Shown here: one piece after another, positions 53,786 through 57,593 of the stretch | How the letters are laid out: each line of letters starts with the position of its first letter | Numbering within the stretch: position 1 is the stretch's first letter | From: Candidatus Latescibacterota bacterium | GTDB lineage: Bacteria; Latescibacterota; UBA2968; UBA8231 | NCBI GenBank assembly: GCA_965248265.1 | Contig: CBDFJF010000001.1 | Coordinates: 480,001-544,000, forward strand | Direction: 5' to 3' | Length of the DNA: 64,000 nt | Notes under the pieces: generated by a model | Databases searched by the model: none | Seen by the model: the letters and a program-made list of their open reading frames with translations, nothing else | What the model was told of the DNA's origin: nothing | Made by a program: the position numbers and the translations under genes

Positions 53786-55036
53786 TTACTTCACCAGGAA
53801 GTACTTGCTCTTGCCCCGGCGGATGACCAGGTACTTGCCGTGTAACCCATCTTTCGTGCGCATGGTTCGCTCCATTTCCTGACAGCGATCCCCATTGATG
53901 TAGATGGCGCCGCTGTCGATGTCCTGGCGTGCCTGCCTTTTCGAGGAGGAGATACCGGCGTTGACGAGCAGGTCGACGAGTCCGACTTGGGGCTCGTCCA
54001 GGTTGTAGGTGGGCACGTCATTGAAGCCCAACTCAAGCTCGTCCTCTTCCAGTTCCACCAGATTCCCGTAGAACAGAGCTTGCGAGATTTTTTCTGCCTT
54101 GCGGGTGCTCTCCTCACCGTGCACGAGAATCGTCAACTCGATGGCCAGGGCGCGCTGGGCCTCGCGCTTGCCCGGATCCTGCTGTACAGATTCCTCCAGT
54201 CCACGGATGGCCTCCTGATCGAGGAAGGTGAAGACCTTGAGCAGGGAGAGGACGCTGGCGTCATCGGTGTTGAGCCAATACTGGTAGAACTCGTACGGAG
54301 ATGTCTTGTCGGCATCCAGCCATACGGTACCGGCTTCGGTTTTGCCGAGTTTGGCACCATCTGCTGTAGTTATCAGCGGATAGGTCAGGCCATAGGTCTT
54401 GGCCCCCTTTACCCGCCTGATCAGATCGGAACCGGCCGTGATGTTGCCCCATTGGTCACTGCCACCGATCTGCAGCTCACATCCTTTGAGCTCGTGTAAC
54501 TTGAGGAAGTCGTAAGACTGTAGAATCATGTAGCTGAACTCGGTGTAGGAGATACCGGTCTCCAGGCGCGAAGAAACCGAGTCCTTGGCCAGCATGTAAG
54601 GGATCGGAAAGTGCTTGCCCACGTCCCTGAACAGGTCGATGGCGGGCATGTCGCCGAGCCAGTCGAAGTTGTTGACGAGTTGGGCCTTGTTAGCACCATC
54701 AAAGTCCAAAAATGGCTCGAGCTGCTTTCTGATCTTGACGGCCCACTCTTCGACCGTATCCCTGGTGTTGAGACTGCGCTCCTCTTTCTTGCCGCCCGGG
54801 TCGCCGATCAGACCGGTGGCTCCACCGACCAGGGCGATGGGCACGTGGCCAGCCTGCTGGAAACGCCGCAGGACAAGGATGGCAGCCAGGTTGCCGATGG
54901 TGAGGCTGTCGGCGGTAGGGTCGAAACCGGCGTAGAGGGTGATCGGCTGCGACTTGGCCAGCCTTTCGGCCAAACCATCCTGATCGGTTACCTGGTACAC
55001 CAGTCCTCTGAAGTATAGATCTTGTAGCAGGGTCAT
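53786..55036 (-). CDS. tyrS: Tyrosine--tRNA ligase
   Basis: YAGFDPTADSL, IGDPGG, EFSY..LQSYDF, QIGGSDQWGNI, KLGKT and an S4 domain (RRGK). True start is ATG 55036, since the longer ORF runs through the terminator. Confidence 0.96.
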   Translation of the reverse strand: MTLLQDLYFRGLVYQVTDQDGLAERLAKSQPITLYAGFDPTADSLTIGNLAAILVLRRFQQAGHVPIALVGGATGLIGDPGGKKEERSLNTRDTVEEWAVKIRKQLEPFLDFDGANKAQLVNNFDWLGDMPAIDLFRDVGKHFPIPYMLAKDSVSSRLETGISYTEFSYMILQSYDFLKLHELKGCELQIGGSDQWGNITAGSDLIRRVKGAKTYGLTYPLITTADGAKLGKTEAGTVWLDADKTSPYEFYQYWLNTDDASVLSLLKVFTFLDQEAIRGLEESVQQDPGKREAQRALAIELTILVHGEESTRKAEKISQALFYGNLVELEEDELELGFNDVPTYNLDEPQVGLVDLLVNAGISSSKRQARQDIDSGAIYINGDRCQEMERTMRTKDGLHGKYLVIRRGKSKYFLVK

Positions 55037-55070
55037 GGCAGTACTCTCATGAGTGTGTGTTTCACCCAAC

Positions 55071-55099
55071 AAAAAACCCCCGACCAGCAGGCCAGGGGT
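55071..55099 (-). terminator. Intrinsic terminator (attenuator) in the tyrS leader
   Basis: mRNA ACCCCUGGCC-UGCU-GGUCGGGGGU (10-bp stem with two G-U pairs) followed by a U run, about 35 nt before the tyrS ATG. Confidence 0.85.
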
Positions 55100-55132
55100 G
55101 TATTCGATTGGATCGACGTGCAAGCGTGACGA

Positions 55133-55195
55133 CTAATCGAAAGCCCCCGGTGAACGGTAGTATCGATAATAAGCGCGGAGCCTGTGCGTCGTCAT
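55133..55195 (-). CDS. Tyr-rich leader peptide of tyrS (20 aa, MTTHRLRAYYRYYRSPGAFD)
   Basis: ATG at 55195, TAT TAT CGA TAC TAC at 55171-55157 and TAG at 55135-55133; lies between the promoter and the terminator. Confidence 0.82.
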   Translation of the reverse strand: MTTHRLRAYYRYYRSPGAFD

Positions 55196-55241
55196 TGTTT
55201 TCGCCGTAATCGGTTTGTCGTAATCGTTTCAGGACAACGGC

Positions 55242-55270
55242 AATATACCCAGGTCGCAGATGTGGGTCAA
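55242..55270 (-). promoter_or_regulatory. sigma70-type promoter of the tyrS leader transcript
   Basis: Minus strand TTGACC (55270-55265), 17-bp spacer, TATATT (55247-55242). Confidence 0.78.
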
Positions 55271-55293
55271 TGTGTCGGGTGGGGTGCCGATAA
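55267..55293 (+). promoter_or_regulatory. Candidate sigma28-type promoter
   Basis: TCAA (55267-55270), 15-bp spacer, perfect GCCGATAA (55286-55293). Confidence 0.6.
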
Positions 55294-55345
55294 TAGGTAC
55301 AGGTCCGAAAGCGCTACCCCCATCGTCGCCAGAGGTGACCGGAAC

Positions 55346-55549
55346 GTGCCAGAAGACGCAATCACAGCCACAGGCATCTACCCCAACATGACCGCGTGTC
55401 ACGAGGCCTGGTTTGTCGACGATGTCAACCAGTTCAAGATGCTGGTCGCGACATGCCGCATGGATGTGTCACGACAGGAGTACGACTGGTGGGTCCATCA
55501 GATCGCCGAGAGCCTGATGGCTGATTGGGCCGACTCCGTGGCCGTCTGA
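55346..55549 (+). CDS. Small hypothetical protein (67 aa)
   Basis: GAGGTG SD 8 nt before the GTG, host-like codon usage, downstream of the sigma28-like motif. Confidence 0.65.
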   Translation: MPEDAITATGIYPNMTACHEAWFVDDVNQFKMLVATCRMDVSRQEYDWWVHQIAESLMADWADSVAV

Positions 55550-55608
55550 ACCCCGCAACAGTTCCGATCTGGCGATCCTAGCGGATCGGCGCCAGGTCCT
55601 TTACCGTT

Positions 55609-55808
55609 TTGACACTGCCCGTCTACCCAAGCTCCGTATCCACAGCTTCCACCGAGGCGATCTGATGGCTCGATGTCCCCCGGCAGACAGCCCGGTCGCC
55701 GAAGAGCAGAGGTGGAGCGACCTGGACCTCGTCGTGGCCGGCCAGACGGTCCTGCACGATGGGGAGCATCCTTCCCTTCTGATCCTGCCGGTGATTTCGG
55801 GAGCATAG
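55609..55808 (+). pseudogene. Decayed C-terminal fragment of a CocE/NonD-type hydrolase
   Basis: Reads HSFHRGD...LVVAGQTVLHDGEHPSLLILPVISGA-stop, resembling the A.QTV.HD..HPS...LPV end of CocE/NonD proteins; the rest of the gene is absent. Confidence 0.5.
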
Positions 55809-56021
55809 AGTACGGCCCGCACTTCGCCTGCCATCGACCACGGCATAAGTCGTCGCCTCATCCGGATTCGAGACCAGGCTGTTGCGCCCGTCGGCCGGGG
55901 CTCAGAGATTGCGCTTGCCCTGCACAATCTCCGAGACCACACTCTAGAGGCCAGTTCAGCGAATCCGAACCAGAATGCCTGCGGTCCCGGCTCCGGGCGC
56001 CCGACATGGATTGAGCCTGTC

Positions 56022-57413
56022 ATGCATCAGACACTGAAGAGATTGACGGACTACGTCGAAGAGGCGGTCACCACCGAAGCCGATTCGAGCGAGGAGAGGC
56101 TGCGCAAGAAGACCTTCACGCTGATCACCTTCCTCAAGTCGGTGTGCTGTGGTCCTTGGGCGTTGATGTACGCGATTCTCGGAATGAGCGCCGCCGCCCT
56201 TTTGCCACTGTCGTATGCAGCCATTCTGCTGGCTAGCATATTGATGTTTTTCATCACAAAGAATTTCGGCCTATTCGTCAACGTCCCGGCCTTTTTCATG
56301 CTGCTGACGCCGATTGCCCTGCAGTTTACCCTGGGCGGTTTCGCCGCCTCCGGGGCGGTCATGCTCTGGTCCATTCTGGCCCCCCTGTCGGTGCTGGTGT
56401 TCCGGGGCGTGCGTGAGGCCAAGCTGTGGTTCGCCGCGTTCGTCCTGATGGTGATCGTCGCCACTATCTTCGAGCAGCATCTGCCTTCAGTCGCAGATCG
56501 ACCCGGCTGGGTTATCAGCCTCTTCTTTGTCATGAATATCGGAGCCGTCACCGCCATAATCTTCGCCACCGTGCTGTATTTTGTCGGCCAGCTCAGAAGA
56601 GAGCAAAGGGTAGTCAAAGAGAAGAACGAGGCCCTGGAATCGACGCTGAGCCAGCTGAAGCAGACGCAGCACCAGCTGATTCTGACGGAGAAGATGGCGA
56701 CGCTGGGAAAACTGGCGGCGGGCGTCGCTCACGAGATCAACAATCCCGTCGGGGCCGTGCGCAGTGCCGCTGATGTATGCGGGCGATGCCTCGGCAAAGT
56801 CGCCGAGATGGTGGGCTCTCGTGAAACGGCTCAGGAAATCAGAGATGATCCACAATACCAGAAATCGCTTCAAATGATGCAGAGCAACAGCGACATCATC
56901 GCCACGGCGACCGAGCGCATCGCCACGATCGTCGACAACCTGAAGGACTTTTCGCGCCTCGATGAGGCGGAATTTCAGTCAGCCGACCTCCATTCTGGCA
57001 TCGACAGCGCGCTCACGCTCATGCAGCACGAGATTGGTGATGATGTTCAAATCGTCAAGGAATACGGCTCCATCCCGACGATACCCTGTTACTCCAATCA
57101 GCTCAATCAGGTGTTCATGAGCCTCCTCTCCAGAGCTGTGAATGTCATCGACGGCTCGGGTACCGTCACCATCAGTACCCACGCGGACGATGACCATGTC
57201 TGCGTCTCTTTCCGCGATACGGGCGAGGGTATTCCTCCCGGACAGATGGATAATCTCTTTGAGTTGAGCTTTGAGGCGGCGGACTCACGAGTGAGTCTGG
57301 ACACGAGCCTGCCCAGCGCCTACAACATCATCCGGGCCCACGACGGTGACTTGACCGTGGACAGTCGGGTGGACGGGGGGACGGAATTCAAGATATCTCT
57401 GCCGAAGCCGTGA
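56022..57413 (+). CDS. Membrane sensor histidine kinase-like protein with a degenerate ATPase domain
   Basis: About six TM helices, EKMATLGKLAAGVAHEINNP H-box and DTGEGI; N and G2 boxes altered. Confidence 0.88.
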   Translation: MHQTLKRLTDYVEEAVTTEADSSEERLRKKTFTLITFLKSVCCGPWALMYAILGMSAAALLPLSYAAILLASILMFFITKNFGLFVNVPAFFMLLTPIALQFTLGGFAASGAVMLWSILAPLSVLVFRGVREAKLWFAAFVLMVIVATIFEQHLPSVADRPGWVISLFFVMNIGAVTAIIFATVLYFVGQLRREQRVVKEKNEALESTLSQLKQTQHQLILTEKMATLGKLAAGVAHEINNPVGAVRSAADVCGRCLGKVAEMVGSRETAQEIRDDPQYQKSLQMMQSNSDIIATATERIATIVDNLKDFSRLDEAEFQSADLHSGIDSALTLMQHEIGDDVQIVKEYGSIPTIPCYSNQLNQVFMSLLSRAVNVIDGSGTVTISTHADDDHVCVSFRDTGEGIPPGQMDNLFELSFEAADSRVSLDTSLPSAYNIIRAHDGDLTVDSRVDGGTEFKISLPKP

Positions 57414-57516: not shown

Positions 57517-57593
57517 GGGCGATTAGCTCAGTTGGTCAGAGCACCTGCCTTACAAGCAGGGGGTCGCTGGTTCGAGCCCGGCATCGCCCACCA
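57517..57593 (+). tRNA. tRNA-Val (anticodon TAC)
   Basis: Acceptor stem GGGCGAT/ATCGCCC, D arm AGCTCAGTTGGTCAGAGC, anticodon arm CCTGC-CTTACAA-GCAGG, GGTTCGAG T loop and encoded CCA. Confidence 0.97.

Follow-up and report, generated by a model that had tools for sequence, protein, structure and literature searches.

In a 64,000-nucleotide (nt) stretch of DNA from a Candidatus Latescibacterota bacterium, hereafter the window, we observed that tyrS, the gene for tyrosine--tRNA ligase, is preceded at positions 55037-55270 by a leader that is probably a classical ribosome-mediated (leader-peptide) transcription attenuator sensing charged tRNA-Tyr. The central evidence is comparative: a short open reading frame (ORF) with one to six Tyr codons, a run of G residues at its stop codon and a terminator stand upstream of tyrS in 63 of the 68 tyrS loci of the window's family. 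An earlier sequence-only reading of the window had described a promoter, a 20-codon ORF with a Tyr cluster, a 10-bp terminator stem with a U-run, and tyrS, and we found every one of these parts exactly where it had placed them. The parts are listed below in window coordinates, all on the minus strand.

55242-55270, minus strand: sigma-70-type promoter, with the -35 hexamer TTGACC at 55270-55265, a 17-nt spacer and the -10 hexamer TATATT at 55247-55242.
55133-55195, minus strand: leader ORF of 20 codons, from the ATG at 55195 to the TAG at 55135-55133, encoding MTTHRLRAYYRYYRSPGAFD.
55157-55171, minus strand: putative regulatory codons TAT TAT CGA TAC TAC (Tyr-Tyr-Arg-Tyr-Tyr), four Tyr in five codons.
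55135-55150, minus strand: predicted antiterminator 5' strand, CCGGGGG (55150-55144) plus UUCGAUU (55141-55135), lying within the leader ORF and ending at its stop codon.
55092-55109, minus strand: predicted antiterminator 3' strand, AAUCGAA (55109-55103) plus CCCCUGG (55098-55092), the latter belonging to the 5' arm of the terminator.
55071-55099, minus strand: predicted intrinsic terminator, with a stem at 55099-55076 of 10 pairs (7 G-C), a 4-nt loop and a six-T run to 55071.
53786-55036, minus strand: tyrS, tyrosine--tRNA ligase, 416 amino acids (TIGR00234, 411 bits against a cut-off of 113.8, E = 5.7e-123), with its ATG at 55036, just outside the span of the leader.

The whole element measures ~130 nt, including a translatable ORF. 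Its promoter agrees with the consensus at 10 of 12 positions, and relatives carry a TTGAC-N16-19-TAnAnT promoter in the same relative place. From the first Tyr codon to the antiterminator strand downstream there are 21 nt, and the terminator has a predicted energy of -18.9 kcal/mol. Since the nearest upstream gene is a divergent sensor kinase on the opposite strand, the hairpin does not end an upstream gene.

To assess conservation, we sampled 76 species-level genomes of the family, identified tyrS at E ≤1e-100 in 68 of them, and took the 400 nt upstream of tyrS from all 68 loci; where a locus held several candidate ORFs, the script kept the one with the most Tyr codons. Clusters of Tyr codons upstream of tyrS in relatives had been set beforehand as a test by the sequence-only reading, and the 63 positive loci bear it out. 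They cover 15 of 18 genera. In 62 of them the element was seen directly, with the stop codon 21-41 nt before a G+C-rich hairpin followed by a T-run, and with 61 ATG starts and one GTG start; the 63rd locus is split by a contig end, and the rest of it was located on a second contig (L188). Four of the 68 loci lack the element (L006 and L008 of one genus, L009 and L023). At L023 (G011) the tyrS match itself contains two TGA stops and one TAG stop and has no leader, and this tyrS may be a pseudogene or an assembly error.

The leader peptides diverge widely and have in common Tyr and a Gly-rich end, as in MTRTIAYRYYYYASGG, MQTLRADRHYYYTPLHRQG and MKNCYRYYHLEISGG; what leaders retain is limited to their Tyr codons and the G-run adjoining the stop. 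Among the 29 loci of the largest genus, ORF length varies between 18 and 21 codons, chiefly because leaders differ in how many Tyr codons they carry (2 to 6), and in every case the ORF is in frame with a stop abutting the G-run. By comparison of sequences, this conservation argues that the tyrS leader is a real regulatory element and not a chance ORF with a hairpin.

We next consider what the leaders encode. Averaged over the 15 genera, Tyr makes up 17.6% of leader residues, compared to 2.8% in the long ORFs of the window's genome; this 6.4-fold enrichment is the highest of all residues and is somewhat inflated because the most Tyr-rich ORF was kept at each locus. Tyr is above background in 15 of 15 genera and is the sole residue of which this is true, with Arg and Thr enriched 2.3-fold and 2.0-fold, respectively. 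Seven leaders carry one Tyr codon, 14 carry two, 24 three, ten four, five five, and two six. The minor codon TAT is used more in leaders (TAT 116, TAC 68) than in the long ORFs of this genome (TAC 29,333, TAT 11,338). We also observed that the codon directly before the Tyr run is often an Arg codon, CGA in 22 distinct leaders (window 55163-55165) and CGC in 14, with CAC in a further 16, and that the CGA-TAY pair survives in leaders reduced to a single Tyr codon. As a minor codon, CGA accounts for 15,629 of the roughly 117,000 Arg codons counted in this genome; its place before the Tyr run could reflect a slow-decoding context or an RNA motif.

The terminator helix is supported by covariation. 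When 50 leaders were aligned on a model, 97.8% of the helix cells proved to be paired, three of eight pairs have changed on both sides, and the covariation score of 0.263, compared to 0.149 after shuffling, was reached by none of 500 shuffles. The alternative pairing was examined by folding. The sequence-only reading had noted that 55150-55135 is complementary to 55109-55092, including the 5' arm of the terminator, and this complementarity was confirmed: when the terminator 3' arm is left out, the antiterminator pairing is the minimum-energy fold in the window (-24.1 kcal/mol). The window's leader-to-arm duplex, at -14.8 kcal/mol, was matched by one of 200 shuffles. Read by eye, folds without the 3' arm show the G-run paired with the C-run in 17 of 18 loci, and in the remaining one (L012) a different stretch near the stop pairs.

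The two strands also appear matched to one another within lineages. Over 24 representatives, the mean leader-to-arm duplex energy was -15.4 kcal/mol for a leader with its own arm, -13.4 kcal/mol for leaders swapped between genera and -9.3 kcal/mol for shuffled leaders, and the own duplex was stronger than the genus-swapped one in 19 of the 24. Lineages with long terminator arms carry matching leader extensions. When the G/C core was removed, the flanks alone still gave -2.5 kcal/mol for own pairs compared to -1.2 kcal/mol across genera (18 representatives), and only 4 of 5000 permutations were as strong.

The spacing of the parts was measured in 60 loci, leaving out L025 and L144 (terminator not found or N's). 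In all 60, a distance of 12-41 nt (median 24) separates the first Tyr codon from the antiterminator strand on its 3' side, and in 59 that strand comes to an end 0-14 nt ahead of the stop codon. Between stop codon and terminator there are 21-41 nt at 59 of 60 loci listed for this measure, the exception being L144, which contains N's, was mis-called and was dropped later. Given the usual size of a ribosome footprint, this geometry fits a ribosome at the stop codon that would mask the antiterminator strand and a ribosome at the Tyr codons that would leave the strand free. Ribosome-mediated attenuation, as put forward in the sequence-only reading, draws support from 63 of 68 family loci and from geometry that fits in 59-60 of 60.

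The proposed mechanism can be set out as follows. Transcription would start at the promoter and a ribosome would translate the 20-codon leader. When Tyr-tRNA is ample, the ribosome would reach the stop codon and cover the CCGGGGG G-run, 9 nt before the stop; the downstream C-run would then be free, the terminator hairpin would form, and RNA polymerase would halt before tyrS. When Tyr-tRNA is scarce, the ribosome would stall at the Tyr codons ~21 nt upstream and leave the G-run exposed, so that it could capture the 5'-arm C-run while the 3' arm has yet to be synthesised; the terminator would be blocked and tyrS transcribed. The choice between antiterminator and terminator would be kinetic (co-transcriptional) and not one of equilibrium. 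We infer leader translation, stalling, kinetic competition and the response to tyrosine from the arrangement of these parts. A search for sequencing runs that contain this stretch listed four, all of one study, and no RNA run.

Several observations weigh against this reading, and we gather them here. First, the window locus is hardly beyond chance when taken alone, and it is conservation that carries the case. Within 3 kb we found three promoter-like sites compared to 1.1 expected, and three terminator-like sites compared to 1.9 expected, so that each is unremarkable singly, and the fold of the whole leader did not differ significantly from shuffles (z = -1.40, 20 of 200 shuffles as good). A scan of the 7.3-Mb genome was more telling: it returned 1412 terminator-like sites and, ahead of them, 210 short ORFs with a run of a single amino acid, of which the tyrS leader is the only one with a Tyr run. 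The family genomes are related and hence not independent samples, and the inflation of the Tyr enrichment noted above counts in the same direction.

Second, the antiterminator core shows no compensatory change. The sequence-only reading had looked to relatives for covarying stems; the terminator helix provides them and the antiterminator core does not. In fixed columns, 70.3% of the core's cells pair with no two-sided changes, 251 of 500 shuffles do equally well, and sliding one strand by one column gives 71.0%. The core cannot covary because it is nearly invariant, and the antiterminator therefore rests on conserved complementarity and not on compensatory change. Third, the same reading had proposed folding the leader with and without the ribosome footprint masked, and the antiterminator never emerged: in equilibrium folds of the complete transcript the terminator was always the minimum-energy structure, with the footprint masked on any Tyr codon or on none. 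The model therefore needs kinetic trapping, and the switch must be a kinetic one, as it is in the E. coli trp attenuator. A trp-like 1:2 hairpin, in which the C-rich stretch after the Tyr codons pairs with the G-run, would allow termination when the leader is not translated; folding predicts it, with 4 or more bases paired, for 41 of 52 distinct leaders. It is modest overall (mean -7.5 kcal/mol, z = -0.7) and weak in the window (-2.6 kcal/mol, z = 0.0).

Fourth, the signals for translation are uneven. As the sequence-only reading had cautioned, the window's leader ATG has no strong Shine-Dalgarno sequence (-2.1 kcal/mol). The corresponding family medians are -3.3 kcal/mol over leaders, -6.0 at tyrS starts and -2.5 at random sites. 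At one locus, L005, the element is present without a canonical start codon, and the seven leaders with a single Tyr codon carry it within RRYRR. With a 5' untranslated region (UTR) of ~40 nt, the window's leader is not leaderless. A different arrangement is seen elsewhere in the family, where the start codon lies exactly 7 nt past the -10 hexamer at the GTG-start locus and, in one genus, at all nine loci measured (together L018, L112, L113, L115, L118, L140, L141, L145, L149 and L002); two loci of a third genus have the same 7-nt spacing by eye. This suggests that the leader mRNA is leaderless and directly translated in those loci. Five of them (L018, L140, L141, L145 and L149) have the single Tyr codon in the conserved RRYRR context.

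We weighed three other explanations. The best surviving of them, which we nonetheless consider unlikely, is a factor-read switch, in which TyrRS (tyrosyl-tRNA synthetase), tRNA-Tyr or another protein would bind the CGAUAY/Tyr-codon stretch or the G-run and the ORF would be incidental. The CGA found before the Tyr run in 22 distinct leaders, and kept as CGAUAY where only one Tyr codon remains, could be an RNA motif, and the weak Shine-Dalgarno sequences of many leaders and the missing start codon of L005 would also be at home here; in part of PMC2965389, autoregulation of the E. coli synthetase gene thrS through its mRNA leader is described as known. However, an in-frame ATG, Tyr codons and a stop by the G-run are kept in 63 of 68 loci despite differing sequence and length, TAT and TAC interchange, and the number of Tyr varies by whole codons. 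The exact 7-nt distance from -10 box to start codon in one genus likewise speaks for translation, and against an RNA read by a known class stand the lack of any T-box or other Rfam match and a length of ~130 nt, too short for a T-box.

A switch coupled to translation but not specific to Tyr, responding to general translation speed or to another tRNA (for example Arg through CGA), is a less probable explanation still. The enrichment of Arg and Thr, the seven leaders with a lone Tyr codon in RRYRR and the minor status of CGA in this genome are what it has to offer, set against Tyr alone being above background in all 15 genera, runs that reach 5-6 Tyr codons in some species, the identity of the regulated gene as tyrS, and sister leaders before a DAHP (3-deoxy-D-arabino-heptulosonate 7-phosphate) synthase gene that use Tyr, Phe and Trp codons, matching that enzyme's pathway. 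That there is no regulation at all is very unlikely. On that view the ORF would be meaningless or a small gene, and the hairpin would either terminate constitutively but leakily or stabilise the transcript within a long 5' UTR. The weak single-locus statistics and the equilibrium preference for the terminator would suit it, but a strong constitutive terminator between a promoter and an essential gene makes little sense when no second promoter is evident, the G-run keeps its place at the stop and its complementarity to the terminator arm in 59-60 of 60 loci, the peptide shows no conservation as a protein, and the ORF is the sole Tyr-run ORF among the 1412 terminator-like sites.

Searches for other RNA classes were negative. 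The absence of an Rfam T-box (RF00230), which the sequence-only reading had expected, held up at E values up to 10 in window positions 54000-56500. No Rfam family matched in the window below E = 2, and the best match covers the terminator alone. Rfam amino-acid leader families (the His, Leu, Thr and Trp leaders and the like) gave no match in the window or in 15 related loci, and at the Rfam gathering score these 15 loci returned tRNAs only and no T-box.

To determine how widely the element is distributed, we built a covariance model from 34 of 60 distinct leaders. In the window's own genome it found a single copy, the next matches having E of at least 0.25, and among 88 genomes sampled from other families of the phylum it gave no full-length match. 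In the rest of the class, matches were weak or confined to the terminator; five of these (E 2.6e-6 to 3.5e-3) were considered as tyrS leaders and rejected, as they are not leaders before tyrS. A wider spread was also rejected: 2 of 80 tyrS loci from other phyla have a Tyr-rich upstream ORF, both in AT-rich Clostridia and probably by chance.

The tyrS covariance model also found leaders before the DAHP synthase gene (aroFGH family; TIGR00034, 483 bits) in 10 genomes of five genera, at E = 1e-7 to 4e-12 (L189:1788-2000 on the minus strand, L187, L190-L196 and L198). The leader peptides there mix Tyr, Phe and Trp, as in MNPSTAPRYFYFFYFYAFDKGGER, MTTSTRYFYYYWFYASGQGG and MNHRIDRYFPFYFFAWKFSGG, and are followed by the same CCCCUGA terminator after the same G-run at the stop. 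In one of the five genera tyrS has no leader, and the DAHP synthase gene of the window's own genome has none.

Two further leaders lie in the window's genome, outside the window. Before trpE (L207:536-2125, anthranilate synthase component I; TIGR00564, 580.9 bits), a promoter and a 30-codon ORF, MEKATNAGRYRVWRFWRSATRVGLRPHTRR, with two Trp codons (L207:295-387) stand ahead of a strong terminator whose T-run is 9 long; the arrangement resembles a classical trp attenuator. The other (L206:298-607) has a 27-codon ORF, MRNSRLQRQQQQQQRIQSSLGQRPSMY, with six consecutive Gln codons, then a terminator and directly after it the genes for tRNA-Gln(CUG) and tRNA-Gln(UUG). This leader repeats 13 nt of the terminator 3' arm, and its start codon lies 7 nt past the -10 box. 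In a sister genus, two genomes have Gln-rich leaders of like layout ahead of tRNA-Gln (L214 and L215); the leader is absent at 11 tRNA-Gln loci of eight other genera, where the tRNA gene follows a protein-coding gene. The Gln leader would be a leader-peptide attenuator of tRNA genes, and a literature search returned no description of a leader-peptide attenuator controlling tRNA genes.

These leaders raise the possibility, which we put forward tentatively, that a portable, lineage-specific scaffold, represented by the tyrS leader as one of its copies, has been duplicated and re-addressed by a change of codons: Tyr for tyrS, Tyr/Phe/Trp for DAHP synthase and Gln for tRNA-Gln. The common plan would be a leader ORF that imitates, at its 3' end, the terminator 3' arm and has the G-run at the stop.

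tRNA genes are also found near the tyrS leader as a feature of its surroundings. In the window, a tRNA-Val gene lies at 57517-57593, ~2.3 kb upstream of the leader, and in 9 of 15 scanned related loci (L003, L004, L010, L011, L012, L014, L015, L019 and L024) the tyrS leader region likewise has a tRNA gene nearby, at a few hundred bases to ~1.1 kb.

The known form of tyrS control is the T-box of Firmicutes, which binds uncharged tRNA directly and requires Stem I, a specifier loop and the T-box sequence. The leader described here resembles the Bacillus subtilis tyrS T-box in the gene it precedes, in its proposed antitermination when charged tRNA-Tyr is low and in the use of a Tyr codon as recognition element; unlike a T-box, it is an element of ~130 nt with a translatable ORF and no RF00230 match. 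The type of attenuator is known, and tyrS appears to be undescribed as its target: in agreement with the sequence-only reading, our literature searches, whose coverage stopped short of table S9 of PMC4007540 and Lopatovskaya et al. 2010 (Mol Biol 44:128), returned no description of a tyrS leader peptide, and the main text of Naville and Gautheret 2010 makes no mention of tyrS.

The closest known system, as described in parts of PMC11802643 and PMC1262725, is E. coli pheST with its pheM leader peptide, which likewise has a leader ORF of cognate codons, an intrinsic terminator before the synthetase gene and mutually exclusive hairpins, which in the tyrS leader are predicted. The tyrS leader differs from it in the amino acid (Tyr), the gene (tyrS) and the host, an uncultured family rather than a proteobacterium. 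It has no sequence similarity to pheST, as no Rfam leader family matched, and it is highly compact, using the G-run at the stop as antiterminator strand and having, in the window, a 1:2 hairpin that is weak or missing.

Outside Proteobacteria, synthetase genes under short ORFs of cognate codons have been reported in Streptomyces (trpS and leuS, in part of PMC1262725; alaS, thrS, trpS and leuS of S. lividans, in part of PMC8079986) and predicted in Deinococcus deserti, for which part of PMC4007540 describes leaderless leader peptides for cysS and others, with 14 leaders listed in its table S9; in this respect the tyrS leader is alike. According to the same portion of PMC4007540, the leader ORF of D. 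deserti begins at the 5' end of the transcript, which may be compared to the 7-nt spacing from -10 box to start codon in one genus here. The window's leader differs in its ~40-nt 5' UTR, and tyrS is named in none of these passages (table S9 aside).

The leaders before DAHP synthase in relatives have their own parallel. In Corynebacterium glutamicum, the aroR leader (Phe-Tyr-Phe) controls the aroF DAHP synthase operon by ribosome stalling, and its attenuator is unaffected by tyrosine availability (both in part of PMC11802643). It parallels the Tyr/Phe leaders found here as far as that account goes; unlike aroR, the DAHP synthase leaders of relatives have longer aromatic runs (e.g. YFYFFYFY) and are built on the scaffold of the tyrS leader.

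The catalogue of leader-peptide attenuators has had a gap at tyrosine and tyrS. The tyrS element is short, well conserved (63 loci) and easily tested in reporters, and its natural series of 1 to 6 regulatory codons asks how codon number sets sensitivity. If the scaffold proposal is true, attenuators would evolve by codon re-specification, and this would extend to the control of tRNA genes. The recurrence of the design before DAHP synthase, trpE and tRNA-Gln suggests that classical attenuation is a main regulatory tool in this lineage. In conclusion, the control of tyrS in this poorly known, uncultured phylum has apparently been solved by the ribosome rather than by a tRNA-binding RNA.

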